This document shows, piece by piece, positions 9,975 to 46,121 of a DNA stretch of 64,000 nucleotides. The position numbers and the translations under genes were made by a program. The notes under the pieces are model-generated. The model saw nothing but the letters and a program-made list of their open reading frames with translations. It did no database searches and had not been told where the DNA came from. Positions within the stretch are counted from its first letter, which is position 1, and each line of letters opens with the position of its first letter. Source of the stretch: Candidatus Aminicenantes bacterium (lineage in GTDB: Bacteria; Acidobacteriota; Aminicenantia; Aminicenantales; Aminicenantaceae); assembly GCA_011772475.1 (NCBI GenBank), contig WVZK01000044.1, positions 14,727 to 78,726 on the forward strand, in the 5' to 3' direction.

Positions 9975-10508
9975 ATGAAAATACTCAGAAATATAAATGT
10001 TCCTTTTTCTAGAAATCAAATTTTAGCCATTTTGGGGGGCATCCTCGTCGTTGTTGTGATTTTGATCTTCATTTTTGGAGCTGTTTGGGGAGGCGTTAAG
10101 CAGCCCATTTCTTTTAATCATAAAATTCATGCGGAGAATGATTTGGATTGCTTGGATTGTCATCCCTATTTTAATGAACATGCTTCATCAGGGAGACCGA
10201 GTCTAGAGACATGCATGAGCTGCCATGAGGAACCTCAAGGTGAAAGCTTGGCTGAAAAAAAGCTTTTAGAATATATAAAATCTGGGAATGAGATTGACTG
10301 GCAAAGACTTTATCGGGTTCCTGAAGATGTTTATTTTTCCCATAGGAGGCATGTAGTTTTAGGGCAAATTGATTGTATGACTTGTCATGGAAATATCGGC
10401 GAAAGTCCCAAGCCGCCTTCAGAGCCTTTAAAAATAACTATGAAGAAATGCATGAAATGTCATGAAGAAAAAGAGGCTAGTAACGATTGTATTGCCTGTC
10501 ATAGATAG
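9975..10508 (+). CDS. membrane-anchored pentaheme cytochrome c (ActA / c3-c7 family-like)
   Basis: 177 aa with an N-terminal TM helix (ILAILGGILVVVVILIFIFGAVWG). Five CXXCH motifs: CLDCH, CMSCH, CMTCH, CMKCH, CIACH. FNHKIH...CLDCH is a typical c7/ActA-type start. Confidence 0.8.
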   Translation: MKILRNINVPFSRNQILAILGGILVVVVILIFIFGAVWGGVKQPISFNHKIHAENDLDCLDCHPYFNEHASSGRPSLETCMSCHEEPQGESLAEKKLLEYIKSGNEIDWQRLYRVPEDVYFSHRRHVVLGQIDCMTCHGNIGESPKPPSEPLKITMKKCMKCHEEKEASNDCIACHR

Positions 10509-10556
10509 AAGTGATTTGAATATATTCTTACCGAAAACTCCAAAAAGGACGAATAA

Positions 10557-13016
10557 ATGGGCTTAAAAAGAAGAGATTTCCTTAAAATAATCGGAGGATC
10601 AGCTCTTAGCTTTTCTCTCTATGATTGTTCTACTAAGAATTATCTTTCTCCGATAAGAGAAAAGGAATGGAGCCCCAAGGTTGAAGAATGGATTCAATCT
10701 GTTTGTTTCGCTTGCCCTGGAGGCTGTGGGATATTGGGCAGAGTGGTTGATGGCAAGCTCGTAAAAATTGAAGGGAACCCCGCTCATCCTATTAATCGAG
10801 GGAAACTCTGTCCTGTAGGCCAGGCAAGCCTTCAGGTTCTTTACAGTCCTGATAGAATCAAAGGGCCTATGAAAAAAATCGGAGGAAAAGATTCTAGCAA
10901 ATGGCAGAGCATTAGTTGGGAAGAGGCTATGGAGACCTTGGTTTCAAAGCTCAAAGAATTAAGGAACGCTGGAGACTCTCATAAATTAGTTTTGTTGAAT
11001 GGGGGAAATAGAGGAATTCTCAGTGAAATTTTTGATAGATTCATGAAAGTTTTTGGCTCTCCCAATCATTTCCGCTATGATTTTTATAATAGTCTTACCC
11101 AGGCCTATTATCTTACTCAAGGGATTGATGAATTATTAGCTTATGATTTTGAAAACAGCAACTATATTCTTTCTTTTGGCAGCAGTTTCTTAACCTCTTG
11201 GCCCTCACCTGTTCAATCTATGAGAGCGTATGCTTTTTTAAGGCAGGGAAGGCCAGGGAAAAAAGCAAAGATCGCTCAGATCGAGCCTAGGTTTTCGATA
11301 GCTGCTTGTCGAGCGGATAAGTGGATCCCTATCGAACCCGGCACAGAGGGGCTGCTGGCATTAGGAATCGCCTATGTTCTCATCAAAGAAAGGCTCTACG
11401 ATAGAAATTTTATCGAGAAATTTACCTTTGGTTTTGAAGATTGGGAAGATGAAGATGGAAATAGCCATTACGGATACAAGAACTTAGTATCGGAAAGATA
11501 TCGATTAGATTTTGTTTCAGAAACCACTGGAGTTTCAGTTGATGATATTGTTACTCTTGCCAAAGATTTTGCTATGAATAAGCCTGCCATAGCCATTTTA
11601 GACCATAATGCCACTAATTATTCTAATGGATTGTATAATGCATTGGCCATTCATTCATTAAACGCTCTGATCGGAAGCATCGATGTGCCAGGAGGAGTTT
11701 TAGTTCAGAGAAAAGTGCCTCTTCAAGAATTACCCAAGATATCTGTAGATGAGGCTACAAAGATGAATCTTTCTCAGCCAGCAATTGATAGCCCTGAAGA
11801 AGGCCAATTCCCCCTGGCCACTTCGACTCCTTCCCTGATTCCAGAAAACATTCTTAAGGGAAAGCCATATCCTGTGAATTTAGCTTTCATCTGCAAAGCC
11901 AATCCCTTATTCTCATCCCCGAATTCAGAGAAATACCGAAAAGCCTTTGAGAAGATTCCTTTTATTGTAAGCTTTTCTTCTTTCATGGATGAGAGCACTC
12001 TGTATGCTGACCTTGTTCTTCCGGATAAAACCTATCTTGAAAAATGGCAGTATGCAGAAAGTTCCCCTGTTTCAAAAACTCCAGCCATTGGCATCGGGAA
12101 GCCCATTGTAGAGAATTTATTTAATGCGAAGCCTACCGAAGATGTTATTTTAGAGGCGGCTCAAAGGATGGGATCATCTTTTGCGAGTCATTTTCCTTGG
12201 AAAAATTCTAAGGATTTTCTCCTTTACAAGATTGATACTCTTTTTCGAGCTCGCAAAGGTATTATCTTCTCTGATCCTTTTGAAGAAACTCAGTTAAAGC
12301 TTTTGGAAGAGCGTGGTTGGTGGGTTCCTCAATTCACTTCAGCCAGCGAATTTAAGGCAGAATTAATGCAAAAAGGAGGATGGTGGGATCCGGCTTATAG
12401 CTTTGGCCAAAGGAGCTTTGTATTCAGGACTCCATCAAGAAAGTTTGAATTTTATTCTCAATTATTTGTAAAAAGGATTGAAAAAATTGCAGAACAAATA
12501 GGAGAGAATAGAGAGGATAAGAAGGATGTTATTTTTAATCAACTAAATTTTGAATCCAGAGGAGACGATTTTTTCATGGCTCATTATGAAAAGCCGCAAT
12601 TTGAGGGCGATAAGAAGGAATTTCCTCTGTATTTGTATATATATCAACCTTTTAGTTTAACCAATGAATATGAAGCTAACCAACCTTGGTTTCAGGAAAT
12701 TATGGGATTTCACCTTAACATGAACTGGGATTCATGGGCTGAGATTAATCCCCATACAGCTTCTGAATTAGGAATCGCAGATAATGATTTAATTTGGATT
12801 GAGTCTGTTCATGGAAAAGTTAGAGTTAAGGCAAAGATTTATTCCGGAGCCATGCCTGATGTGGTAAGTGTCCCTTTTGGATTGGGACATAGAGCTCTTG
12901 GCCAATGGGCCAAAAATAGAGGAATCAATCCTATTGATCTTATAGGAGCAAACTTTGATCAGCTGACGGGCTTAGCTATGAAATTATCAACGCGAGTAAA
13001 AATCTATAGAGCCTAG
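10557..13016 (+). CDS. Tat-exported molybdopterin-oxidoreductase-family large subunit (PsrA/ActB1/QrcB-like)
   Basis: 819 aa. Twin-arginine signal MGLKRRDFLKIIGGSALSF. N-terminal 4Fe-4S motif CFAC-PGG-C-x27-C. Whether it binds Mo/W cannot be decided by eye. Confidence 0.8.
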   Translation: MGLKRRDFLKIIGGSALSFSLYDCSTKNYLSPIREKEWSPKVEEWIQSVCFACPGGCGILGRVVDGKLVKIEGNPAHPINRGKLCPVGQASLQVLYSPDRIKGPMKKIGGKDSSKWQSISWEEAMETLVSKLKELRNAGDSHKLVLLNGGNRGILSEIFDRFMKVFGSPNHFRYDFYNSLTQAYYLTQGIDELLAYDFENSNYILSFGSSFLTSWPSPVQSMRAYAFLRQGRPGKKAKIAQIEPRFSIAACRADKWIPIEPGTEGLLALGIAYVLIKERLYDRNFIEKFTFGFEDWEDEDGNSHYGYKNLVSERYRLDFVSETTGVSVDDIVTLAKDFAMNKPAIAILDHNATNYSNGLYNALAIHSLNALIGSIDVPGGVLVQRKVPLQELPKISVDEATKMNLSQPAIDSPEEGQFPLATSTPSLIPENILKGKPYPVNLAFICKANPLFSSPNSEKYRKAFEKIPFIVSFSSFMDESTLYADLVLPDKTYLEKWQYAESSPVSKTPAIGIGKPIVENLFNAKPTEDVILEAAQRMGSSFASHFPWKNSKDFLLYKIDTLFRARKGIIFSDPFEETQLKLLEERGWWVPQFTSASEFKAELMQKGGWWDPAYSFGQRSFVFRTPSRKFEFYSQLFVKRIEKIAEQIGENREDKKDVIFNQLNFESRGDDFFMAHYEKPQFEGDKKEFPLYLYIYQPFSLTNEYEANQPWFQEIMGFHLNMNWDSWAEINPHTASELGIADNDLIWIESVHGKVRVKAKIYSGAMPDVVSVPFGLGHRALGQWAKNRGINPIDLIGANFDQLTGLAMKLSTRVKIYRA

Positions 13017-13030
13017 AAAAGGAGAAAGAA

Positions 13031-13723
13031 ATGCCTCGATGGGGAATGGTTATTGATTTAGATAGGTGTACTGCATGTCAAGCGTGCGTTGTGGCATGTA
13101 AAGCTGAGAATAATATTCCCTTTTCTTCACCCAAAGAAGCTGGAAGAAGAAGAATTATCTCCTGGATGCGTGTATTACCAATGATGGAGGGAGAATATCC
13201 TAACCTTAGAGAAAGGTTTATTCCCAGGCCATGTATGCATTGCGATAATCCTCCTTGCGTAAAAGTCTGTCCCGTTGGTGCTACTTATAAGAATAAAGAA
13301 GGATTAATTGCCCAAGTCTATACCCAATGTATAGGCTGTCGCTATTGTACCAATAACTGTCCTTATACTCTAAAGTACTTTAATTGGTTTAGACCCGAAT
13401 GGCCGGAGGAAATGGAAAATTATCTAAACCCAGATGTCTCGATTCGAAGCAAGGGTGTGGTCGAGAAATGCACTTTCTGTCATCATCGCCTCCAAAAAGC
13501 CAGAGAAAAAGCTCGGGCAGAAAACAGAGAGCTTAAGGAAGAAGATTATATCCCTGCTTGTGTTCAGACATGTCCCACTGATGCCATCTATTTTGGAGAT
13601 TTGGATGATTCTAAAAGCAAAGTGGCCCAGTTGGCAAGAAGTCCTCGAGCCTTTCGTCTTTTAGAAGAATTAGGAACAGAACCCAAGGTCTACTATCTCT
13701 CTGAAGGAGAATGGCATGGATAA
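13031..13723 (+). CDS. four-cluster 4Fe-4S ferredoxin subunit (PsrB/NrfC/ActB2/QrcC-like)
   Basis: 230 aa. Cys groups are CTACQACVVAC, CMHCDNPPCVKVC, CIGCRYCTNNC and CTFCHHR...CVQTC. It has no signal peptide, consistent with hitch-hiking on the Tat subunit. Confidence 0.88.
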   Translation: MPRWGMVIDLDRCTACQACVVACKAENNIPFSSPKEAGRRRIISWMRVLPMMEGEYPNLRERFIPRPCMHCDNPPCVKVCPVGATYKNKEGLIAQVYTQCIGCRYCTNNCPYTLKYFNWFRPEWPEEMENYLNPDVSIRSKGVVEKCTFCHHRLQKAREKARAENRELKEEDYIPACVQTCPTDAIYFGDLDDSKSKVAQLARSPRAFRLLEELGTEPKVYYLSEGEWHG

Positions 13724-15086
13724 AGATACATTAGATGAGCATTTTGTTGATGAGGTTGCGCATGAAGATGCTCCCATTCTCAAGCCTATCCTCTACACGA
13801 GCAAGAGATTTTATACAGTCGTTTTTATTCTTGTGGTCATTATCCTAATTGGCGTTCTCGCTTGGATATTCCAGCTTAGAAAGGGACTGGGAATCACAGG
13901 ACTAAATCAGCCAATATTTTGGGGATTTTACATAACTAACTTTGTCTTTTTTATCGGAATTAGCCATGCTGGGACATTGATTTCGGCTATTCTTCGTTTG
14001 GCTCGAGCGGAATGGAGAAGAGCCATCACTCGCTCAGCTGAAGTTATAACAGTTCTAGTCCTCTTTTTTGGGGTTTTCAACATCATTACTGATTTGGGTC
14101 AGCCTGGTCGGATGTTTAAAGTCTTTACCGATGGCAAGCTGAGTTCTCCGTTGCTTTGGGATGTTTTAAGTATATCGCTTTATTTAGCAGCGAGCGCCAT
14201 CTATCTTTATTTGCCTCTTATTCCAGACATTGCCTTGATGAGAGATAAATTTAAAAGTAAAACTAAAAGACTTTTTTACAGGATACTGGCTTTAAACTGG
14301 AAAGGAACAGAAAAACAATGGGCGATACTGGAAAAAGCCATTTCTATAATGGCCGTGGTCGTTATCCCTGTTGCAGTTTCCGTTCATACGGTTGTTTCTT
14401 ATGTTTTTGCCATGACCATTCAGCCTATGTGGCACAGCACAATTTTTGGCCCCTATTTCGTCACCGGAGCAATTTTCTCTGGCATTGCTGCCTTGATCAT
14501 TGCCATGTATTTTATCCGGCGAAGCTATCATCTTGAAGATTATTTAAAGCCTATTCATTTTAACAATTTAGGTTTATTGCTTCTGGTAATGAGTCTCTTG
14601 TGGTTTTATTTCACTTTTACCGAGAATCTGACAGCTTTTTATGGGGCCGAGCCTGCTCATCTGACCGTTTTTTGGAGCAAATTCATTGGAGGATATGCCC
14701 CATATTTTTGGACTATGGTGGGAAGCTGTTTTGTCATTCCTCTCGTTATTTTATCTAACAGAAGAACAAGGACTGTAACAGGCACGACGATAGCTTCGGT
14801 ATCAGTAATTATAGGGATGTGGCTGGAGAGATTCACGATAGTTTTGCCAACTTTAATAAATCCCAGACTCCCTTATGAAAAAGGAATGTACCATCCGACA
14901 TGGATCGAATTTGCTGTTACTGCAGGATGCTTTGCTACCTTTATTTTACTCTATGTATTATTTACAAAATTTTTCCCTATAGTTTCTATATGGGAAGTGA
15001 AAGAAGGCAAAGAGATAGGCGTGAAAGAGACTGAGGAACGCATTAAAAGTTATCTTCCTGGGAAAGAAAAAGAAAATTTGAAATGA
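13716..15086 (+). CDS. NrfD/PsrC/ActC-family integral membrane quinone-interacting subunit
   Basis: 456 aa and polytopic (about 10 predicted helices). The start overlaps the FeS gene by 8 nt. IFWGFYITNFVFFIGISHAGTLISAILRL is typical of the NrfD family. Confidence 0.85.
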   Translation: MDKDTLDEHFVDEVAHEDAPILKPILYTSKRFYTVVFILVVIILIGVLAWIFQLRKGLGITGLNQPIFWGFYITNFVFFIGISHAGTLISAILRLARAEWRRAITRSAEVITVLVLFFGVFNIITDLGQPGRMFKVFTDGKLSSPLLWDVLSISLYLAASAIYLYLPLIPDIALMRDKFKSKTKRLFYRILALNWKGTEKQWAILEKAISIMAVVVIPVAVSVHTVVSYVFAMTIQPMWHSTIFGPYFVTGAIFSGIAALIIAMYFIRRSYHLEDYLKPIHFNNLGLLLLVMSLLWFYFTFTENLTAFYGAEPAHLTVFWSKFIGGYAPYFWTMVGSCFVIPLVILSNRRTRTVTGTTIASVSVIIGMWLERFTIVLPTLINPRLPYEKGMYHPTWIEFAVTAGCFATFILLYVLFTKFFPIVSIWEVKEGKEIGVKETEERIKSYLPGKEKENLK

Positions 15087-15125
15087 AATATTAATATTTG
15101 CATCTAGAAGAAGAAGGAAAGAGAG

Positions 15126-16709
15126 ATGAATGAATCGATTAAAAAAACGAAAAATATTTATTTTATCTTAGGCATAATTTTCACTACTGGCGTTTTGATT
15201 TCCTTGTTCGCTGCTGAAGAAAATAAGAGCTTTACTTTTCCAGAAGATCCTTTGAAAGGAAGTAAGCTTTTTGTCAGCAAAGGTTGTATAAAATGCCATT
15301 CTATATGGGGAATCGGAGATACTCTTGGTCCTGATCTTGCCGACATGAGTAGAGAACAAAATCTTCTCCAGTTAGCTGGATTACTGTGGAGCCACTCTCC
15401 TAAAATGATAGAAATCATGCATGAGAGAGGAGTTTCTCGTCCCCTCTTTACTCCTCAAGAAATGGGCGATTTAATGGGCTATATTTATTATTTCAATTAT
15501 TTTGGTCGACCCGGTAATTTTATAGAAGGGGAAAAGCTGTTTCAGGAAAAGGGTTGTACAAGCTGCCATTCAGTAGGCGAGAATGGAGGCAAAACTAAGA
15601 TTTCCTTGGATGATTATGGGAAGTACATTTCTCCTTCGTTTTTAGTGACTGGTCTTTGGAATCATAGCCCTGAGATACTTTCTGAAATAAGAAGATTAGG
15701 TATAGAACAACCTGAATTCCATGGTCAGGAATTGGCTCATCTGCTGGCTTATATGCGAGGCGCAGCTCTAAATGAGGATGGAGACATCACCTATGCAGAA
15801 CCAGGAAGCCCGAAAAGAGGAAAAGATATCTTCATACAAAAAAAATGCAATGTGTGCCATGCTGTTTTCGGCGAAGGAGGAAGACGAGGGTCTGATTTGG
15901 GAAAAAGAGAGCTGCGGCTGACTCTCACTGAGATTTCAGGAAAAATATGGAGCCATTCTGGTCAAATGTGGCAGGAAATGAAGAGGATTGGCATTCCTTT
16001 TCCGATTTTTTCGCCTAAAGAAATGGCCGACCTCATTTCTTTTCTCTACTTCATTCAGTTTTATGAGGAGAAGGGAGATCCAGTAGAGGGAAAAAAACTT
16101 TTTAGAGAGAAAGTTTGTATTTTTTGTCATGCCCTAGAGGGGGAAGGAGAAAACGTTGGCCCTGATCTTACCAAGAGCGAGGCCCATTTTTCGCCAATTT
16201 TTTTGGCCTCTTCAATGTGGAATCATGCGATCGTAATGGAAGATATGCTGGCCGAGAAAGATCTGGGATGGCCACGCTTTTCTGGAAACGAGATGCGGGA
16301 TCTTGTTAGCTATGTTCAAGAAGCTTCCGAAAGATCTAAGGAAGAACGAATGAAAAGGCCTATCGTTCCTTCAAAACCAAAAGTTCTTTTTCTTTCTGAA
16401 AATAGGTTTGACCTTGAACTTGCCAGGAGCGGAAAAAAGATTTATATAGCGAAGGCATGTAATGCTTGCCACAACATCACTGGGAAAAAGCGTGCCATGG
16501 GTGGAGACCTCAAAGACATCACTAAAATAAGAGATTTGCAATGGCTTTTTAATTTTATTAAAAACCCAAAATCGATGCTTAAAACAGATGATCTAGCAAA
16601 GCAACTTCTTCAAGAATTCAACAATATCCCCATGCCACAACAGGGTTTGACCGATGAAGAAGTCATTGCCATTATCGAATATTTAAAGTCTCCTGAAAAA
16701 ATAGAATAG
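15126..16709 (+). CDS. membrane-anchored cytochrome c with five tandem class-I monoheme domains
   Basis: 527 aa with an N-terminal TM helix. There are five repeats of the G-x-x-[LI]F-x-x-K-x-C-x-x-CH pattern: CIKCH, CTSCH, CNVCH, CIFCH, CNACH. Confidence 0.8.
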   Translation: MNESIKKTKNIYFILGIIFTTGVLISLFAAEENKSFTFPEDPLKGSKLFVSKGCIKCHSIWGIGDTLGPDLADMSREQNLLQLAGLLWSHSPKMIEIMHERGVSRPLFTPQEMGDLMGYIYYFNYFGRPGNFIEGEKLFQEKGCTSCHSVGENGGKTKISLDDYGKYISPSFLVTGLWNHSPEILSEIRRLGIEQPEFHGQELAHLLAYMRGAALNEDGDITYAEPGSPKRGKDIFIQKKCNVCHAVFGEGGRRGSDLGKRELRLTLTEISGKIWSHSGQMWQEMKRIGIPFPIFSPKEMADLISFLYFIQFYEEKGDPVEGKKLFREKVCIFCHALEGEGENVGPDLTKSEAHFSPIFLASSMWNHAIVMEDMLAEKDLGWPRFSGNEMRDLVSYVQEASERSKEERMKRPIVPSKPKVLFLSENRFDLELARSGKKIYIAKACNACHNITGKKRAMGGDLKDITKIRDLQWLFNFIKNPKSMLKTDDLAKQLLQEFNNIPMPQQGLTDEEVIAIIEYLKSPEKIE

Positions 16710-16743
16710 ATTCTTGAATTGAAAGAAAACTACGGGCATAAAA

Positions 16744-18672
16744 ATGAAGTATAAAGTGTGGGTGCCAGATTTATTATGGTATAGAACAAATATTTTATGT
16801 ATGGAAGCCTGCCCTGTTCATACTGATTCTGGAAGATATGTTCAACTCATCGGGATAGGAGAAGATCAAGAGGCCTATTTAGTCGCACGGTCCTCCAACC
16901 CTTTTGCCTCTGTTTGTGGTCGGATATGCGCTGCTCCTTGTGAAGACGCCTGCCGAAGAGGAAAAATCAATGAATCTATTACAATTAGGTCTTTGAAAAA
17001 ATTTGTTACGGAAAAATATGGTGTTGAATCTAAGATAGCCCATACTCAAGAGCTGCTTACAGAAGGAAAGAAAATTCCACAAGGATCTGTGTGGCCTCTC
17101 CATGTGTCTTCTGTGATTAAGAGAGAAACATCTAAGACAAGGAAAAAAGTCGCTGTCGTCGGAGGAGGGCCTTCGGGATTAGCTTGTGCCCATGATTTGG
17201 CCTTGAGAGGCTATCAAGTAACCATATTTGAAGCCTCTAATATGCTGGGCGGAATGCCGAGAACAGCTATTCCAGAGTACAGATTGCCAAAAGATATTTT
17301 GAGAAAAGAGGCAGAATTTGTGCTTTCTTTAGGAGTTGAAGTCAGATTTAATACGCCTCTCAGTGAAAATTTCGGCCTTGATGAATTGAAGAAGCTGGGT
17401 TTCGAAGCATTTTATATTTCTGTGGGAGCCCAGCAGAGTCGAGAACCTAATATTGAAGGCACAGAGTTGGAAGGTGTTTTTAATGCCACTGATTACCTTT
17501 TGAATATAAACCAAGGTTATAAAATAGAATTAGGAAGAAGGACGGTTATCATCGGAGGAGGTCTAGTGGCTCTAGATTCGGCTCGAACCGCGTTGAGAGA
17601 AGTTCTGGCTCACCTTTCTGATTCGGAAGAAGCAAAGCTAGCTATCGATATATCTGCAGAGGCTGGAATGATGATGACTGCGATTGATGTTGCTCGAACA
17701 GCCTTGAGAAGAGGAACACTTAAGGTTGATGTGGCTAGCCTTGAGTCATTTGAAGAGATGCCGGCTACCCAAAGCACTCAAGGAAAAGAAGAATTTGAAG
17801 AATCTGTTAGAGAAGGAATTACTTTCCATCCCTCCCGAGGTCCAAAGCGAATTATTGGCGAGGGCGGACAAGTCAAAGCTGTTGAGTTTCTCAAAGTCAA
17901 AAGAGTTTTTGATGAGAAAGGGCGATTTAATCCTGAGCTTGAGCCGAAAACAGAAGAGATCATTGAAGCCGATTCTGTAATCCTGGCTATAGGTCAAAGG
18001 CCTGATCTTACATTTATTAGACCAAAAGATGGGGTAGAAATAACGCCCCAGGGGACGATCAAGGTGGATCCTCATACTCTGGCCACGACTCGAGAAGAGG
18101 TATTTGCAGGAGGAGATGCAGCTTTTGGGGCGAGAATCCTTATCGAGGGAGTGGCTAATGGGAAAGTGGCTGCCCACTCAATTGACAATTATTTGCGTAA
18201 AAAGAGAGGCACAGAGAAAATGTGTTCTGTCTCTATAAAGGTTCTATCACACCAAGATTATAAGAAGCCTGAAGAATATGAGATTAGGGAGAGAAAGACA
18301 CCTGATAAAATTTCTCTGGAACACCGAACAGGAGCAAATGAAGTGGAACTCTCTTTTGAAGAAAAAGAAGCTCGATCACAGGCACAGCGCTGTTTGATTT
18401 GCCATATTAACACTATTTATGACTCTGAGCTATGTATTCTTTGCGGCGCCTGTGTTGATCACTGTCCAAACAACTGCTTAAAGCTTGTTCCCTTCTCTGA
18501 GATTGAACTTGAACAAAGAGAAATCATAGAAAAGAAAATAAAAAATAAGAAAAGAAAATCATTAACGGCAATGATCAAAGATGAGATAGTTTGTATACGC
18601 TGCGGCATTTGTGCCGACGTATGTCCTACTAGAGCCATGACCATGGAAAGATTTTCTTTTAGGGAGATGTAG
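16744..18672 (+). CDS. GltD-like NAD(P)H-dependent FAD oxidoreductase with N-terminal FeS Cys motifs and a C-terminal 2x[4Fe-4S] ferredoxin domain
   Basis: 642 aa. CMEACPVH...NPFASVCGRICAAPCEDACRRG is the glutamate-synthase small-subunit type. Dinucleotide folds are KKVAVVGGGPSGLACAHDLALRG and RTVIIGGGLVALDSA. C-terminus carries CLICH...CILCGACVDHCP and CIRCGICADVCP. Confidence 0.82.
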   Translation: MKYKVWVPDLLWYRTNILCMEACPVHTDSGRYVQLIGIGEDQEAYLVARSSNPFASVCGRICAAPCEDACRRGKINESITIRSLKKFVTEKYGVESKIAHTQELLTEGKKIPQGSVWPLHVSSVIKRETSKTRKKVAVVGGGPSGLACAHDLALRGYQVTIFEASNMLGGMPRTAIPEYRLPKDILRKEAEFVLSLGVEVRFNTPLSENFGLDELKKLGFEAFYISVGAQQSREPNIEGTELEGVFNATDYLLNINQGYKIELGRRTVIIGGGLVALDSARTALREVLAHLSDSEEAKLAIDISAEAGMMMTAIDVARTALRRGTLKVDVASLESFEEMPATQSTQGKEEFEESVREGITFHPSRGPKRIIGEGGQVKAVEFLKVKRVFDEKGRFNPELEPKTEEIIEADSVILAIGQRPDLTFIRPKDGVEITPQGTIKVDPHTLATTREEVFAGGDAAFGARILIEGVANGKVAAHSIDNYLRKKRGTEKMCSVSIKVLSHQDYKKPEEYEIRERKTPDKISLEHRTGANEVELSFEEKEARSQAQRCLICHINTIYDSELCILCGACVDHCPNNCLKLVPFSEIELEQREIIEKKIKNKKRKSLTAMIKDEIVCIRCGICADVCPTRAMTMERFSFREM

Positions 18673-18677
18673 TTTCA

Positions 18678-19142
18678 GTGAAAGAAAATGAAAGAAAAAT
18701 AACTAGAAGATTCTTTTTTGGAGTCTTAGGCAAAACATCAATTATCGTGGCTTTACTGGCAGAAGCAATAGGAGCAATTAAAGCTTTTATTCCTAAGGTC
18801 CTCTATGAACCGCCTTCTAAATTTAAAATTGGCAAACCAGAAGACATCCCAGAAGGAATAACTTTTCTTCCACAACATAGATTATACATTTTTAGAAATA
18901 ATGATGACTTTCATGCAATTTCAGCTGTGTGCACTCATCTGAAATGCATCGTCGATTGGAAACCAGATCAAAGGGAATTTTACTGCCCCTGTCATGGAAG
19001 TATATTTTCTCAAGCTGGGATTAATCTAACAGGACCTGCTCCAAAGCCTCTTCCATGGTATCCTTTATCCCTTGCTCCTGATGGTAACTTGGTTATAGAT
19101 TCAAGCAAACAAGTCAAGCCAGATTATAAGTATTCCCTTTAA
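18678..19142 (+). CDS. Rieske [2Fe-2S] protein
   Basis: 154 aa, GTG start. Tat-like anchor TRRFFFGVLGKTSIIVALLA. Rieske boxes CTHLKC and CPCHGS. Confidence 0.9.
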   Translation: MKENERKITRRFFFGVLGKTSIIVALLAEAIGAIKAFIPKVLYEPPSKFKIGKPEDIPEGITFLPQHRLYIFRNNDDFHAISAVCTHLKCIVDWKPDQREFYCPCHGSIFSQAGINLTGPAPKPLPWYPLSLAPDGNLVIDSSKQVKPDYKYSL

Positions 19143-19154
19143 AGAGAGATATAT

Positions 19155-20456
19155 ATGAAAGAAAAGTTGACTAATATATGGAGGAAATTAACCTGGTCTT
19201 GGTCTCCACGATCAGAACGGGAGGCGAGCGAATCTGTCATCAAAAATTTCTGGTTACACTGGTTCCCATCGCGGATATCTCTCCGGAGTTTAGGCTGGAG
19301 TTATTCTCTTTGGTTGGGAACAATTGCTGCCTGCCTGTTTATCATCTTGGCAATCACTGGACTTTTGCTTCTTTATTTCTATATTCCTTCCGTCCGGAGC
19401 GCTTATTGGAGCATAAAGGACTTAGAAAATGTTGTTGTTTTTGGCTCGCTTCTCCGAGCTCAACATCGGTGGGCTGCTGAGTTAATGGTTGCAGTTGTTT
19501 TCATTCATCTGATGAGGGTCTTTTTTACTGCCTCATATCGTGACCAGAGAGTATGGAATTGGTATATTGGAATTGGTCTCTTGGTCATAACGCTTTTTCT
19601 TTCCTTTACCGGCTATATTCTTCCCTGGGATCAGCTCGCTTATTGGGCCTTGACTATAGGGATGAGTATTGCCAGCGAAATTCCTTTTCTTGGCAAGAGT
19701 ATCAGTTTTCTTTTGGCCGGAGGAAATGTATTAGGACAAAATAGCCTCCTCCGTTTTTTTGTTCTTCATAATTTTTTTCTTCCCGCTATGCTTCTCTTTC
19801 TGTTTGCTCTTCATATGTGGAGAATTAGAAAAGATGGAGGGCTAACTTCTATGGACAGGTTGATACGAGAAACGCAATTAAAAGAAACTCCTGTCAGTCC
19901 TACCAAGTCATATTCCTTGCTGGGGGTTACCGAAGGAACAACCATTCAGGTCACAACAACACAAGTGCTTGATGAAAGAAATTCCGTGAGGAGCTCTCCT
20001 CATTTACTCCGTAGAATTGCAGTTGTTTTTTTGATCACAACAATCTTCACTTTAGGACTTGCTCTTCTTTCTCCAGCACCATTGGAAGAGCCTGCTAACC
20101 CTTCTGTAACTCCAATTCCTGCCAAGGCTCCCTGGTATTTTCTCTGGCTTCAGGAATTGATTGCTATTACAACTATCAAAATCGGGAAGATAACAATAAG
20201 CGGTGGCCTGATCGGAGGAATTCTAGTTCCAGGCTTTCTTTTTCTTTTAGCTATTCTCTGGCCTTTTTTGGATAGAAGCCCCAAAGAAGCCATTGGAGTC
20301 TGGTTTCATAAAAAAAGAAGAATTCAAAACAGTGTTTTCATTTTAATCTGCGTGGTGATTATAGTTCTTATCATAATTGGCCTTTATTTAAGAGGACCAT
20401 ACTGGAAATTTTTCTGGCCATGGCAGCCTTGGCCTGAAATTCCGGCTCAATTCTAG
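19155..20456 (+). CDS. cytochrome b (fused b6 + subunit-IV-like, extended C-terminus)
   Basis: 433 aa and polytopic. RAQHRWAAELMVAVVFIHLMRVFF and FTGYILPWDQLAYWALTIG are cytochrome b/b6 signatures. Confidence 0.88.
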   Translation: MKEKLTNIWRKLTWSWSPRSEREASESVIKNFWLHWFPSRISLRSLGWSYSLWLGTIAACLFIILAITGLLLLYFYIPSVRSAYWSIKDLENVVVFGSLLRAQHRWAAELMVAVVFIHLMRVFFTASYRDQRVWNWYIGIGLLVITLFLSFTGYILPWDQLAYWALTIGMSIASEIPFLGKSISFLLAGGNVLGQNSLLRFFVLHNFFLPAMLLFLFALHMWRIRKDGGLTSMDRLIRETQLKETPVSPTKSYSLLGVTEGTTIQVTTTQVLDERNSVRSSPHLLRRIAVVFLITTIFTLGLALLSPAPLEEPANPSVTPIPAKAPWYFLWLQELIAITTIKIGKITISGGLIGGILVPGFLFLLAILWPFLDRSPKEAIGVWFHKKRRIQNSVFILICVVIIVLIIIGLYLRGPYWKFFWPWQPWPEIPAQF

Positions 20457-20468
20457 GAGATCAAAGTT

Positions 20469-21689
20469 TTGAACAATAAAAAGAATTTCAATCCTGACAA
20501 AGATTTTTACTGGCTGGCTTTCTTTTCTTTCCTTCTATTCGTAGTGGTGATCATAGCTTTCTACAGGGAGGCAAATCCTGAATGGAAGAAATATCAGCGA
20601 GAATTCAAAAATTATCTCGAAGAAAACATAAGCCCAGAGTCAGCTTCTGCCTTTGAGTTTTCTGTAAAACAGCTCTGGCTTCCGGAGCTTAATAAGGTCG
20701 ATCGCTGCATCAGTTGTCATTTAGGATATGACCAACCTAATCTGACTGAAGCGCCGGAGCCTTATGCAGCCCACCCTGATATTTTGCCTCATTCTGTGTT
20801 GAAAATGGGATGCACTATTTGTCATGGAGGACAGGGTTTTGCACTCAAGAAAAAAGATGCTCATGGAGAAGTAGAACACTGGGAAGAGCCTATGTTGGGA
20901 GCGAAGCTGGCCAAAAAATATGGTTTTGAGTCTGAGAAAATATTGATGCAGATGAATTGTAACACTTGTCATCGCCGTGATGAGGATTTGACTGGAATGG
21001 AAATGATAAATCTTGGCAAGAACCTCTTGACTCAGAAGAAAAAATGTCAAACCTGCCATATCATAGATGGAAAAGGTGGAAAATTGGCAGCTGACCTAAC
21101 ATTTATCGGAGATAAACCGGCGGAGAGATTCGATTTTTCTCAAATTAAAGATAAACTTATCGAAAGCGAAAGACCTCTCTCCGTGTTGAGCTGGCATTTT
21201 GAACACTTTATGAATCCCAAGGCTGTTGTCCCTGATAGTAAAATGCCCTATGTCAAATATACAGAAGAGGAGGCATGGGCTTTAGCAATGTTAATGATGA
21301 GCTGGAGAAGTGTCAGCCTGCCCGTTATGCTCATACCCGAAGAAAAAAGGGAGGAAGTGCCACCTCCTGAAAAAAAGCTCGAGAAAAGGAAACTATCCAT
21401 TGTTGAATGGGGAAAAGAGCTCTTTGAAAGTAAGGGCTGTTCTGAGTGTCATACTATTGGAGGGGGAGTAGAGGTTGGTCCTGATCTAATAGGTATAACG
21501 AAATTGAGAGACATACAATGGTTGAGAAAAATGATTCTTGACCCTGAGAAAATGGAACAAACTGATCCACTAGCCAAAAAATTGTATCAAGAATATGAAG
21601 AAACTGGAATGCCTACAGAAGAATTAACCCTGCAAGAAGTCGAAGCGATCATTAAATATATTGAGTCCTTTAATAAGGAAAGTAATTAG
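20469..21689 (+). CDS. membrane-anchored pentaheme cytochrome c of the Rieske/cyt b complex
   Basis: 406 aa, TTG start 8 nt after AGGAGA, with an N-terminal TM helix. Motifs are CISCH, CTICH, CNTCH, CQTCH, CSECH. The last class-I domain is clearly paralogous to the last domain of the 15126..16709 protein (KLRDIQWL / KIRDLQWL, EAIIKYIES / IAIIEYLKS). Confidence 0.8.
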   Translation: MNNKKNFNPDKDFYWLAFFSFLLFVVVIIAFYREANPEWKKYQREFKNYLEENISPESASAFEFSVKQLWLPELNKVDRCISCHLGYDQPNLTEAPEPYAAHPDILPHSVLKMGCTICHGGQGFALKKKDAHGEVEHWEEPMLGAKLAKKYGFESEKILMQMNCNTCHRRDEDLTGMEMINLGKNLLTQKKKCQTCHIIDGKGGKLAADLTFIGDKPAERFDFSQIKDKLIESERPLSVLSWHFEHFMNPKAVVPDSKMPYVKYTEEEAWALAMLMMSWRSVSLPVMLIPEEKREEVPPPEKKLEKRKLSIVEWGKELFESKGCSECHTIGGGVEVGPDLIGITKLRDIQWLRKMILDPEKMEQTDPLAKKLYQEYEETGMPTEELTLQEVEAIIKYIESFNKESN

Positions 21690-21816
21690 AAACAAAAAAT
21701 ATACTTTTTACTCATTACTATTCTTTTGGTGACATTTAAGTAATTCCATATCGAAATACTGCGGCAGTTAACCAGTAAAATCACAGGATAAACTAAATTC
21801 AATTCCCCTAATTTCG

Positions 21817-21845
21817 TTGACAGAAAAAAGTTAATCCTATAATAT
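21817..21845 (+). promoter_or_regulatory. sigma-70-type promoter for the cytochrome-porin fusion gene
   Basis: TTGACA (21817-21822) is followed by TATAATAT (21838-21845). That gives a -10 at either 15- or 17-nt spacing. Confidence 0.5.
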
Positions 21846-21889
21846 AGTATTTCTATATTTATAGTATATAAATCACAGAAGGATTTAAA

Positions 21890-23116
21890 ATGAAAAGAAA
21901 ATTTATATTCTCAATTCTTTTTCTAGGAATTTGCGTTATAGCATCCGCTCAAGGCGATTCTTATCAAGGAGAGAGGCTATACCAACTTAAGTGTGGACGC
22001 TGCCATTTTGCCTATTCCCCTAGTAAGTATTCTGCTGAGGAATGGAAGACAATCATCAGCGAAATGGGCCCGCTTTCTGGATTAAACAAAGAGACCGAAG
22101 AAGTCATCTTGGATTACCTTCGACAGGAAGCTTCAAAAAAGGAAAGAGAGGCTCTGCCATCGAGTCCTGTCTTGGCTGGCTATGTTTACACTGAATTATT
22201 TTCATCTAAAGATATAACAGATACTTTTGACATCCACTATTTGAACATCAATCTAACGGGCCGAGTCCATGAAAGAATATCCTATCGCGCAGAATTTGAG
22301 TTTGAGCACGGAGGAGGGAAAGATGATCCCCCATTTATTGAACAGGCTTATATTGATGTATGGTTTTTGAAAAATGTAGGTTTAAGAATAGGGGCCATGT
22401 TGACTCCCTTCAATCGCTTTGATGAATTCCATGGTCCCTTAGAGAATCTTCTCGTCACCCGTCCCCAAGTGTCGAGGGAAATTGGAGTCAGTGCTTGGAA
22501 GGAAGTCGGTGTCAACCTTCATGGTAATCTCTTTATTAATAAAGATTTATACCTCAATTACGATGCTTATGTGATAAATGGGCTTGGCAGTGGAAGCCGA
22601 TTGAGAGGAAGTCGTCAATATCGAGACAATAACGATGCCAAAAGCTTTGGGGTTCGTTTAAGCGGAGTTTATTTAGATAGATGGGAAGTGGGTGCCTCAT
22701 ACTATAGGGGTGCCTGGGACGATGCAGGTGATTTCGATTTAAGCATTTATGGCTTTCATCTCATGGGAAAAATCGGTGAATTAAATCTTTTTGCTGAGTA
22801 TTCACGTTCCCTTTCTGAAAATCCAGATCCCTTTGAAGAGGGAAAAGCTGATGGGTATTTTATCCAAGCCTCTTACTTGATCAATGATAAATTCAGACCT
22901 ACGATCAGGTATGGAACTCTGGATTATTTGGACGGGGGAGGGCTCTTGGGTCGTAGCCCAACGGATTTCGATACCAGAGTCTTGGCCTTAGGATTCAATT
23001 ATTACCTCACTCGGGCCATTGTCTTTAAGATTGAATACGACATCGTTCAAGAGGGAGAAAGAAAAGAAGAGAAAGATAATAATCTTCTCGCCTTGCAAGC
23101 TGCAGTCAGGTTCTAA
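21890..23116 (+). CDS. outer-membrane porin-like beta-barrel (porin O/P-like) with an N-terminal monoheme cytochrome c domain
   Basis: 408 aa. Signal peptide MKRKFIFSILFLGICVIASAQ. Heme domain is GERLYQLKCGRCHFAY...EEWKTIISEMGPLSGL...EVILDYLRQ. The remainder has alternating amphipathic strands and ends in an aromatic residue (LALQAAVRF). Confidence 0.65.
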   Translation: MKRKFIFSILFLGICVIASAQGDSYQGERLYQLKCGRCHFAYSPSKYSAEEWKTIISEMGPLSGLNKETEEVILDYLRQEASKKEREALPSSPVLAGYVYTELFSSKDITDTFDIHYLNINLTGRVHERISYRAEFEFEHGGGKDDPPFIEQAYIDVWFLKNVGLRIGAMLTPFNRFDEFHGPLENLLVTRPQVSREIGVSAWKEVGVNLHGNLFINKDLYLNYDAYVINGLGSGSRLRGSRQYRDNNDAKSFGVRLSGVYLDRWEVGASYYRGAWDDAGDFDLSIYGFHLMGKIGELNLFAEYSRSLSENPDPFEEGKADGYFIQASYLINDKFRPTIRYGTLDYLDGGGLLGRSPTDFDTRVLALGFNYYLTRAIVFKIEYDIVQEGERKEEKDNNLLALQAAVRF

Positions 23117-23186
23117 CGGAACGTCTCAGCTATGGTGCAGTTAGAGGTGCCTAATTCTATTCCCTCTCCAAAAAGAAAAGAGATCA

Positions 23187-23618
23187 TTAGGATATTGATG
23201 AGAGAGCGGTTGCTATTCCTGTAAGCAATAGAATCGCGATCCCTAGAATAAATCCTATAGTAGCGAGATTGATCTGCATCTTTTGAAGTCGTGCCACCTC
23301 TGGTGATAGACCTTGTGCAGCAAGTCGTGAAACTTTGGGAGCTAGGATTTCCAAGGCGTATACAGCAAGAATGACTAACGGTACAGTGAAAATATGCTTA
23401 ATTAAAGTAACAAGAGTCCAAAGGTTGCCAAACCTAAAGACCCCTAAATAGCTCTTGTTGAGAAGGTTCATCACTATCCCTGTTACAGCGAGGAGCATCA
23501 TGCTGGCATAGACTAAGCTGCGAAACCTCTTCATGACTGAACCCATCAGTTTTCCCATAAACGCAGGCTCCAGCGTTTCCCTCATAGAGGGTAGGAGAAT
23601 TAATAAATTAGTGGCCAT
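23187..23618 (-). CDS. small polytopic membrane protein (CopD/DUF2269-like), possibly an N-terminally truncated remnant
   Basis: 143 aa, about 4 TM helices. The reading frame stays open upstream across a single TAG (23628-23630): ...APSIATVV*IGAMATNLLIL. Confidence 0.4.
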   Translation of the reverse strand: MATNLLILLPSMRETLEPAFMGKLMGSVMKRFRSLVYASMMLLAVTGIVMNLLNKSYLGVFRFGNLWTLVTLIKHIFTVPLVILAVYALEILAPKVSRLAAQGLSPEVARLQKMQINLATIGFILGIAILLLTGIATALSSIS

Positions 23619-23748
23619 GGCGCCAATCTAGACTACGGTTGCTATAGATGGAGCGTATTCATTAAAGAAAGCAAAATTAATAAAAGCGTCGGTGACGTTT
23701 GATCACCTTATGTTTTTTGGAATTAAAATTTCTTTTTTCGTTCAAGTC

Positions 23749-45302: not shown

Positions 45303-46121
45303 TTAGGCATAGCTGTGCAGGCCAGCCAGAAGATAATTCACGCCGAAATAGGTGAAGAGAGCAGCTAAGAAGCCAAGGACGGCAATATAGGCAGATCTGC
45401 GTCCTTTCCAGCCCATTACGATCCGGGTATGGAGGTAGAGAGCAAAGACAAACCAGGTTATCAGACTCCAAACTTCTTTGGGGTCCCAGCTCCAGTAGCT
45501 TCCCCAAGCGTAATAAGCCCATATCATGCCAAAAACGAGGCCCCCTAGAGTAAAGAGTGGAAAGCCGATGGCGATACATCTGTAGCTGATAGAATCGAGT
45601 TTTTCTGACGATATTCCCGTTTTCTTGGCCTTGCCTTTTTTTTCTTTTGAATCAGCCACTAAATACATGATGCTGGTGACAAAAGCCAAGGCAAAGAAAG
45701 CTTCGCCGAGGAGTGTGACCGAGACATGGAGCCAGAGCCAATAACTCTGGAGGGCAGGAACCAGGGGGGTTGCCTCTTTTGGCATCAACGGAGAAGAAGC
45801 TAAAGCCATGATGGCTATAACGACCAGCATAAAAAGGGCTCCTGCTTTTCGAATCTTGAATTTCCACTCGATAATGACATAGGCGAGAATAGCACTCCAT
45901 GCAAGGAAGGAAAGAGATTCATACATATTGGTGAAAGGTGCATGTCCGCTTTCCACAGTTCTCATAATAAGGGCAGCAGTATGGAGAAGCAGCCCGATGA
46001 ACGCTATGCTAAAGCCTGTTTTGGCCAGATTTTCTTTTTTTGAAAAGAAGTAAGAGAAGTAGAAAAACGCTGCTAAGAAATAGAATATGAAGGTTACGAG
46101 AAATAGGGTTGATTCGCTCAT
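45303..46121 (-). CDS. ccsA: System II cytochrome c biogenesis heme-handling protein CcsA/ResC
   Basis: 272 aa and polytopic. WWD (tryptophan-rich) motif WGSYWSWDPKEVWSLITW and conserved His residues. Confidence 0.9.
   Translation of the reverse strand: MSESTLFLVTFIFYFLAAFFYFSYFFSKKENLAKTGFSIAFIGLLLHTAALIMRTVESGHAPFTNMYESLSFLAWSAILAYVIIEWKFKIRKAGALFMLVVIAIMALASSPLMPKEATPLVPALQSYWLWLHVSVTLLGEAFFALAFVTSIMYLVADSKEKKGKAKKTGISSEKLDSISYRCIAIGFPLFTLGGLVFGMIWAYYAWGSYWSWDPKEVWSLITWFVFALYLHTRIVMGWKGRRSAYIAVLGFLAALFTYFGVNYLLAGLHSYA

Follow-up and report, generated by a model that had tools for sequence, protein, structure and literature searches.

To our knowledge, Cyc2 is at present the only recognised family of fused cytochrome-porins, and its gene is widely used as a marker for microbial iron oxidation. 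The family has been defined by a signal peptide, a single CXXCH haem-binding motif preceded by [A]xPxFAR[Q/K][T/Y] and followed about four residues later by PxL, a 16-strand barrel of the OprO/OprP kind and a length of at least 365 residues; the motif PxFAR[Q/K][T/Y] is unique to Cyc2 and serves as an inclusion criterion (Keffer et al. 2021, PMC8406198). Fe(II) oxidase activity of this architecture has been proven (PMC8406198, PMC13692758). In current models of Cyc2 the haem domain sits at the barrel's periplasmic end. Here we describe a gene from a stretch of 64,000 nucleotides of Candidatus Aminicenantes bacterium (contig WVZK01000044.1, positions 14,727 to 78,726 of the forward strand, assembly GCA_011772475.1), referred to below as the window. 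The gene encodes a protein, here called the fusion, in which a cytochrome c domain of a different type precedes a porin-like barrel. We propose that it acts as a Cyc2-like one-haem electron relay at the outer membrane, a reading to which we attach about even confidence. The coordinates of all features are collected in Table 1.

Like Cyc2, the fusion has a signal peptide, one CXXCH near the mature N-terminus, a cytochrome placed ahead of a 16-strand OprO/OprP-like barrel, some 400 residues in all and a terminal aromatic residue, and the two barrels are of one superfamily. It agrees with the published definition of Cyc2 in size and layout, having 408 residues, a signal peptide and, at residues 35-39, the only CXXCH in the entire protein. 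A homology search with the fusion returned 255 homologues, and among the best 120 database matches all 116 full-length homologues contain CXXCH while 115 of the 116 end in Phe, which indicates that the open reading frame (ORF) is real rather than a chance one. An artefact of gene fusion is ruled out as well, because the 116 full-length homologues come from many different samples. In public records these proteins are named "porin" or "hypothetical protein". The N-terminus reads as a typical Sec signal peptide with a predicted cleavage site between MKRKFIFSILFLGICVIASA and QG, and this region is variable across the family (column identity 0.33). We also considered that the protein might be a lipoprotein, and this was ruled out since LGIC is not a lipobox and its Cys is not conserved.

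The haem domain comprises about 60 residues and forms three helices in the full-length AlphaFold2 model, with pLDDT (predicted local distance difference test) values of 77-90. When the whole protein is compared with Pfam, residues 31-87 match the family DHC (PF09626) with 30.5 bits against a cut-off of 22.2, at model positions 1-61; the isolated domain scores 34.6 bits and covers positions 1-60 of the 116 in the model. Of the solved structures, a dihaem cytochrome of Shewanella, 3u99, matches this part (residues 31-98, E = 9e-5). Among the NCBIfam models, residues 27-87 weakly match the last 60 residues of TorC (325-385 of 387; E = 1.5e-5), the score being 24 bits where the cut-off of the TorC family is 478. 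The original prediction, made from the letters of the DNA, had described a signal peptide, CGRCH and the segments EEWKTIISEM and EVILDYLRQ (residues 50-59 and 71-79), followed by a porin O/P-like region ending in LQAAVRF, and all of these are present as quoted. Its small haem domain was borne out, but the kinship it suggested with the haem domain of quinohaemoprotein amine dehydrogenase needs refinement: the closest relatives are the N-terminal half of DHC and the C-terminus of TorC, and the haem family of that enzyme (PF09098) is matched only by a distant relative, P0171 (E = 7e-21). P0171 (490 residues) consists of six tandem copies of a monohaem domain of the fusion type, and P0237 (342 residues) of three.

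Conservation was assessed in an alignment of 30 homologues that are 53-78% identical to the window protein. K34, C35, R37, C38, H39 and W52 are invariant and M59 is found in at least 90% of the sequences; in the set of 116 full-length proteins, 114 have a Met about 20 residues past the His of CXXCH. The haem domain of the window protein contains one His (His39) and one Met (Met59); a six-coordinate haem would thus leave no doubt about its ligands. The spacing between Met59 and Y76-L77 is exactly 17 residues, and in DHC the sixth ligand H51 lies at the spacing from Y69-L70 that is generic for the C-terminal helix signature of class I cytochromes (PMC2909971). From these sequence features we infer a class I cytochrome c with predicted His/Met ligation. 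A positive midpoint potential is expected of class I His/Met cytochromes in general, and Met ligation would therefore predict a positive redox potential for the haem of the fusion.

The remainder of the protein is a barrel. Pfam matches residues 108-383 to Porin_O_P (PF07396, 46.4 bits against a cut-off of 20.9) and to Porin_4 (PF13609, 39.1 against 27). The AlphaFold2 model of the full-length protein, built on 30 homologues (pLDDT 76.7, predicted template modelling score 0.76), shows three N-terminal helices followed by 16 beta-strands when strands are assigned with DSSP, and a Foldseek comparison of the model with the PDB has OprP (2o4v, E = 9.5e-14) as its top match, with OprO (4rjw, 4rjx) and general porins close behind. 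The porin-like C-terminal region of the original prediction is confirmed by these results. The haem domain precedes the first strand of a barrel of the porin type and is therefore expected on the periplasmic side. The linker between the two parts has a nearly constant length and a conserved LPxSPVLxGY, which points to a fixed docked position at the barrel mouth; the stretch "sPlLAG" also follows the first haem domain of the Shewanella DHC 3u99.

Conservation within the fusion is highest in loops L3 and L4, where the conserved arginines R191, R196, R237, R239 and R242 are found. The assignment of L3 follows the order of strands in the AlphaFold2 model. Such extreme conservation of pore-lining loops would suit a protein in which the haem is not a relay at all and instead acts as a sensor or gate that opens or closes the pore in response to redox state or ligand, or serves for binding of haem or iron. 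A weak local similarity of the haem domain to the ferric-enterobactin-binding protein FepB (E ~0.005) could be cited in its favour, but this match is marginal, covers helices and includes no binding site. Furthermore, no site is left free for a ligand in a class I haem that is six-coordinate with His and Met, and the conserved loops also occur in the relatives without haem. The motifs E-x-E-x-EHGG, PFxxF, W-x-D-x-G in loop 3 and QxxDNNxxK in loop 4 are common to the haem-less porins, in which the counterpart of L4 reads GxQFxDNNxNK. The two loops were consequently ruled out as a feature specific to redox function. We consider the sensor or gate highly improbable, and with it the substrate-gated function that had been one of two options in the original prediction; the other option, a docking point in electron transfer, agrees with the relay that we prefer.

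Among known proteins Cyc2, which the original prediction did not name, is the natural comparator, and the fusion differs from it in the cytochrome. Upstream of the haem site it reads QGERLYQLK-CGRCH (GExLYxLKCGRCH in the family) where Cyc2 has PxFAR[Q/K][T/Y], and the latter motif is absent from the alignment of 30 homologues, from 150 representatives of a profile search and from the ORFs of the window's genome. As a positive control, the motif scan of named genomes recovered about 98 genuine Cyc2 proteins (IPAFARKY), including those of Acidithiobacillus, Sideroxydans and Gallionella. A proline, Pro44, is found at a Cyc2-like distance from the haem site (H39-FAYS-P44), but it belongs to P-S-K (P-x-K in the family) and not to the P-x-L of Cyc2. 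The cytochrome of the fusion is a three-helix domain of the DHC/TorC type with about 60 residues, whereas the Cyc2 module is short, about 35 residues; known proteins of the Cyc2 kind include Cyc2 of A. ferrooxidans, Cyt572 of Leptospirillum, Cyc2PV-1 of Mariprofundus and Cyc2TAG1 of Ghiorsea. A surrogate Cyc2 hidden Markov model (HMM), built from 79 of the approximately 98 genuine Cyc2 proteins, matches the barrel of the fusion with 52.6 bits (residues 107-407) and its cytochrome region with 0.2 bits (residues 29-42), and haem-less porins score as high with the same model (median 34.6 bits, maximum 68.6). In the opposite direction, an HMM of the fusion family gives at most 14.6 bits for Cyc2 as compared to 100-200 bits for the haem-less relatives. 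Alignment of the two cytochrome regions with hhalign covers 14 columns around CXXCH and nothing further. The pattern of conservation is also reversed with respect to Cyc2 (PMC8406198), the barrel loops of the fusion (column identity 0.87) being more conserved than its cytochrome domain (0.64).

Since the Cyc2 motif is absent and the cytochrome profiles match only around CXXCH, the fusion, judged by these comparisons, is not a member of the Cyc2 cytochrome family, and the porin superfamily is what the two have in common. The comparison bears directly on the possibility that the protein is a true iron oxidase, i.e., a functional equivalent of Cyc2 that oxidises Fe(II) for energy or detoxification and passes the electrons inward. 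The Cyc2 layout and the 52.6-bit match of the barrel are consistent with such a role, but the missing PxFAR[Q/K][T/Y], the lack of homology between the cytochrome domains beyond CXXCH and the equal or higher scores of haem-less porins with the Cyc2 model argue against it; we return to this possibility below together with the terminal reductases of the genome. The "cyc2" calls that have been published for Aminicenantes (FeGenie; Bothnian Sea bioreactor study) might have belonged to the fusion family, but this was ruled out, as the FeGenie output is true Cyc2, MPAFARKYQMTCKTCH.

An exhaustive profile search collected 4887 proteins related to the fusion. The best 150 of these 4887 are nearly all porins without a haem motif, many of them with an N-terminal coiled coil, and the closest relatives of the barrel are haem-less porins of about 340 residues. 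In a maximum-likelihood tree of the barrel region, Cyc2 lies on one side of a branch with a support of 98 in the Shimodaira-Hasegawa-like approximate likelihood ratio test (SH-aLRT), and the fusion family, together with a high-GC sister group that has the same cytochrome, is nested among haem-less porins (SH-aLRT 97-99). Two other porins of the superfamily, P0190 (415 residues) and P0263 (467 residues), carry CXXCH in N-terminal domains that differ in sequence; in the tree each of the two has its own neighbours among the haem-less porins, and they are candidates for further independent cytochrome-porin fusions. The positions of the fusion, Cyc2, P0190 and P0263 in the tree suggest repeated independent capture of cytochromes. 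The approximately unbiased (AU) test did not reject a tree uniting the fusion family with Cyc2 (p = 0.19), so the case for independent origins rests mainly on the unrelated cytochrome domains. Taken together, the sequence comparisons indicate that the cytochrome-porin design probably arose more than once.

Aminicenantia are usually described as fermenters, and the class is widespread in sediment and the subsurface. As the original prediction had suggested, we looked for the fusion and its neighbours in other genomes; the fusion was counted in two samples, one with 201 genomes of the class and one with 401 of the phylum. Of the 201 class genomes, 10 have the full-length fusion, seven of them in the family of the window (its own genome counted), and the phylum sample has it in two genomes only, both of Aminicenantia. 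The haem-less relative of about 340 residues is found in approximately 100 of the 201 genomes, nearly all in the order of the window, where most sampled genomes have it. The window's own genome also contains one. By these counts of homologues the fusion is an accessory gene added to a common porin repertoire and not a replacement. Canonical Cyc2 with the PAFARKY motif was observed in 93 of the 201 genomes; it occurs in one of the 34 other genomes of the window's family and in one of the ten genomes with the fusion. This distribution is compatible with functional substitution of one protein for the other.

The fusion starts 200 bp downstream of a nine-gene respiratory operon (9975-21689) that encodes a c7-type cytochrome, a molybdopterin subunit, an iron-sulphur (FeS) protein, NrfD, a class I multihaem cytochrome, a NAD(P)-type flavoprotein, a Rieske protein, cytochrome b and a further multihaem cytochrome. 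The molybdopterin subunit (10557-13016, plus strand) has about equal scores with ArrA, QrcB and PhsA, all far below the cut-offs. Among 15 fusion loci whose neighbourhoods were compared, five have the fusion downstream of the module of FeS protein, NrfD and class I cytochrome, and in two of these five (L191, L192) it follows directly after the class I cytochrome without the Rieske/cytochrome b part, while in the other three the class I cytochrome lies in the same operon. In another two of the 15 its neighbours are genes for cytochromes with 9, 4, 19 and 11 haems and for a Rieske/cytochrome b pair. The class I tetrahaem cytochrome of the FeS/NrfD module occurs in 10 of the 201 genomes, namely in five of the ten with the fusion and in five of the other 191; in two of the former five it is not adjacent to the fusion, lying on another contig in G103 and about 23 kb away in G183. 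The association of the two genes is clear at the level of four genera, as judged from their co-occurrence.

The original prediction had placed the gene immediately after a large respiratory operon and under its own promoter, and each claim holds in part. The position is as described, but the arrangement is kept in close relatives only, so that the link to the upstream operon, as it appears from the neighbourhoods, is real but partial. The promoter sequence is the best site in its region and plausible as the promoter of the fusion gene, but it stays a candidate, since promoter-like matches near the gene are not commoner than in shuffled sequence (4 found against 4.8 expected). A candidate promoter and a Shine-Dalgarno-like sequence upstream of the gene make transcription of its own possible, and on these signals the fusion may be transcribed separately from the operon.

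The mechanism that we propose would proceed as follows. The protein would be exported by Sec and cleaved near residue 20, a cytochrome c maturation system would attach one haem covalently to C35 and C38, and His39 and presumably Met59 of the small class I domain would serve as axial ligands. The beta-barrel assembly machinery (BAM) would insert the last 315 residues, which would form an OprO/OprP-type barrel with 16 strands, and the linker with its near-constant length would hold the cytochrome at the periplasmic mouth of the barrel. There, the haem would exchange one electron with a small soluble redox-active solute entering the pore, the likeliest candidates being iron species or another diffusible shuttle, and it would also exchange electrons with periplasmic class I multihaem cytochromes, for example that of the neighbouring FeS/NrfD module. 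This would be the working principle of Cyc2 realised with a different cytochrome module grafted on an otherwise haem-less porin lineage. Electrons could flow outward to soluble Fe(III) or shuttles, or they could be taken up independently of oxygen into the Qrc-like module. The relay reading draws on the homology of the domain to the electron-transfer modules DHC and TorC C-terminus, and on the seven of 15 loci in which the fusion stands beside respiratory cytochrome modules in two different arrangements. Where the haem sits with respect to the pore, the relay function, the substrate and the direction of flow are all inferred.

The genome of the window is rich in cytochromes: CXXCH occurs in 95 ORFs, and in 14 of these it is found eight times or more. 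The genome also has genes for Omp85/BamA and, on the contig of the window, a gene for a CcsA-like haem lyase, so that the machinery for making and placing the fusion protein is available.

Several observations weigh against the relay. The barrel has no visible redox specialisation and could be a mere anchor, as haem-less porins have all of its conserved motifs too, those of L3 and L4 among them. A model of the isolated haem domain (5 sequences, pLDDT 72) has no significant structural match in the PDB; its best class I match, itself non-significant, is SorB (2blf_B, E = 5.2, TM-score 0.53). Eight of the 15 loci have unrelated neighbours without cytochromes, five of the ten genomes with the fusion have no class I tetrahaem cytochrome, and the counts of co-occurrence are drawn from related genomes and overstate independence. 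Lastly, neither a haem-copper oxidase nor cytochrome bd was found in the window's genome, which is 87.6% complete and leaves some room for a miss.

The first of these points leads to the main rival, in which the fusion is a periplasmic cytochrome tethered to the outer membrane and the barrel is an ordinary porin that serves as an anchor only, without redox coupling to the pore. The cytochrome would then carry electrons or offer a docking site close to the outer membrane, and might in this way serve MtrAB-like conduits or a periplasmic reductase. We consider this unlikely on balance, and it has several arguments on its side: the barrel motifs are the same as in the haem-less relatives, the N-terminal extension appears to be swappable in the porin superfamily (coiled coils in many members, other cytochrome domains in P0190 and P0263), and a TorC-type domain is found here with a molybdopterin subunit encoded upstream. 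On the other hand, the near-constant linker and the conserved junction suggest a defined position and not a loose tether, a lone class I haem fixed at the outer membrane cannot bridge the periplasm, and about half of the loci lack a neighbouring gene for a cytochrome or reductase.

The result for terminal oxidases is equally relevant to the iron oxidase introduced above. Because no oxygen reductase was found, a classical chain from Fe(II) to O2 is unsupported, and outward flow or non-aerobic uptake is more likely than classical aerobic iron oxidation. The NosZ propeller was not found in the window's genome either, but the search is uninformative, as it likewise found none in any control genome. 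In addition to the layout and the barrel match, a role as iron oxidase could appeal to the distribution, which is mostly non-overlapping with that of canonical Cyc2, and to the adjacent Qrc-like and Rieske/cytochrome b module with its NAD(P) flavoprotein, which could take up electrons. With no oxygen reductase found, in addition to the differences in the cytochrome, we regard a true iron oxidase as improbable, and the relay without commitment to aerobic iron oxidation is the reading that we retain.

A more far-reaching scenario, which we offer as a long shot, combines the evolutionary and the physiological part of these considerations. At least three haem-less porin lineages besides Cyc2 (the fusion family and the P0190-like and P0263-like proteins) would have captured cytochromes, and the DHC-type fusion would be the entry of an oxygen-independent uptake route, in which electrons from Fe(II) or a reduced shuttle pass through class I cytochromes to a Qrc-like menaquinone reductase and to the complex of Rieske protein and cytochrome b with its NAD(P) flavoprotein, so that quinol and NAD(P)H would be formed. 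If true, this would mean lithotrophic electron uptake in a lineage regarded as fermentative.

We found no paper in the literature describing a DHC-type cytochrome fused to a porin. A second cytochrome-porin family, with a different module and on a different porin branch, would suggest that one haem at the mouth of a 16-strand pore is a general and repeatedly evolved solution, and part of the Aminicenantia would possess a redox protein of the outer membrane whose gene tends to occur alongside respiratory cytochrome modules. There is also a practical consequence, because an HMM dominated by the porin part, combined with a check for CXXCH, could confuse the fusion family with Cyc2. The protein is small and has a single subunit and should be expressible in the same way as Cyc2, which makes its function directly testable.

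Additional features of the region are included in Table 1. A gene for a trihaem cytochrome adjoins the fusion in the window and in the loci L190 and L191, on varying strands, and its product may be a partner of the fusion. Three homologues of the tetrahaem cytochrome, each from a different other genome, have one in-frame stop each (G135:C17:25363-26688, TAA; G022:C15:39888-41057, TAG; G158:C731:10773-11888, TAA), which could reflect two genes, a broken gene or an assembly error. Locus L190 (G000 C113:12400-32390), in the same genome bin as the window, repeats the window region gene for gene with protein identities of 57-88%; the repeat includes the operon, a fusion (P0020, 74% identity), a pentahaem cytochrome and thiM/thiL, and the CcsA-like gene is also duplicated, on C121 of the same bin. 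Two related populations sharing one bin seem a better account of the repeat than a true paralogous duplication.

Table 1. Features of the fusion gene and protein and of related genes; positions are those of the window unless a contig is given.
Feature	Position	Strand	Remarks
Coding sequence of the cytochrome-porin fusion	21890-23116	+	408 residues; stop codon included
Signal peptide, residues 1-20	21890-21949	+	KRK, hydrophobic core, ASA before QG; cleavage predicted from the AxA rule
Predicted class I monohaem cytochrome c domain, residues 21-80	21950-22129	+	Pfam DHC, PDB 3u99, TorC C-terminus, three-helix model
Haem attachment motif C35-G-R-C-H39	21992-22006	+	His39 is the proximal ligand
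Met59, putative sixth haem ligand	22064-22066	+	Class I spacing; at least 90% conserved
Linker, residues 81-93	22130-22168	+	Sequence variable, length nearly constant; ends in conserved LPxSPVLxGY
16-strand outer-membrane beta-barrel (model), residues 94-408	22169-23113	+	OprO/OprP superfamily; C-terminal Phe
Loop L3, residues 170-204	22397-22501	+	TPFNRFDxFHGPLxNxLxTRPxxSREIGVSAWK; column identity 0.87; presumed constriction loop
Loop L4, residues 232-250	22583-22639	+	NGLGSGSRLRxSRQYRDNNDAKS; Arg-rich; column identity 0.87
Sigma-70-like promoter candidate, TTGACA-17-TAATAT	21817-21845	+	10/12 matches; best site in 21600-23700
Shine-Dalgarno-like AAGGA	21879-21883	+	6 nt upstream of ATG
Weak terminator-like hairpin with T-rich tail	23134-23161	+	5 pairs, 3 of them G-C; low confidence
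Class I multihaem (tetrahaem) cytochrome c of the FeS/NrfD module	15126-16709	+	Four Cytochrom_C stretches; candidate periplasmic partner
Trihaem cytochrome, 303 residues	23749-24660	-	Cytochrome c'-like similarity (Pfam); repeatedly found beside the fusion
CcsA/CcmC-type cytochrome c assembly gene	45315-45929 (C185:60041-60655)	-	PF01578, 190 bits
Haem-less barrel relative in the window's genome	G000:C103:44465-45400	-	About 340 residues; outside the window

Apart from Cyc2, four groups of described systems can be compared with the fusion. The closest to its cytochrome is DHC, the soluble dihaem cytochrome c of the SHP (sphaeroides haem protein) operon (R. sphaeroides 2FWT/2FW5, Shewanella baltica 3U99), whose N-terminal haem domain and linker are homologous to those of the fusion, the sixth ligand standing equally far from the Y-L signature. 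The fusion keeps no more than the first half of DHC and has a beta-barrel in place of the second haem domain, and DHC is soluble whereas the fusion is predicted to be embedded in the membrane. The sixth ligand of haem 1 in DHC is a His (H51; PMC2909971), and Met59 is found at the equivalent position of the fusion, which predicts a higher potential than that of DHC.

The C-terminal monohaem domain of TorC, the pentahaem cytochrome of trimethylamine N-oxide (TMAO) reductase, has a weak but specific similarity to the haem domain of the fusion. In both proteins a single-haem module is joined to a larger membrane-bound protein; in TorC it is attached to an inner-membrane tetrahaem module of the NapC/NirT type and in the fusion to an outer-membrane barrel. 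The TorC domain serves a periplasmic molybdoenzyme as electron donor and for docking. With OprP and OprO, the phosphate- and pyrophosphate-selective porins of Pseudomonas aeruginosa, the fusion has in common the 16 strands and a long L3, but sequence identity is 14-16% and OprP and OprO have no cytochrome. Porins of the OprO/OprP kind are trimers and owe their phosphate selectivity to an arginine ladder and a lysine cluster. Finally, MtrAB, MtoAB, PioAB and the Pcc complexes of Geobacter likewise combine an outer-membrane barrel with c-type haem for electron transfer, but there the barrel, with its approximately 26 strands, and the decahaem or octahaem wire running through it are separate polypeptides, in contrast to the one polypeptide, one haem and 16 strands of the fusion.

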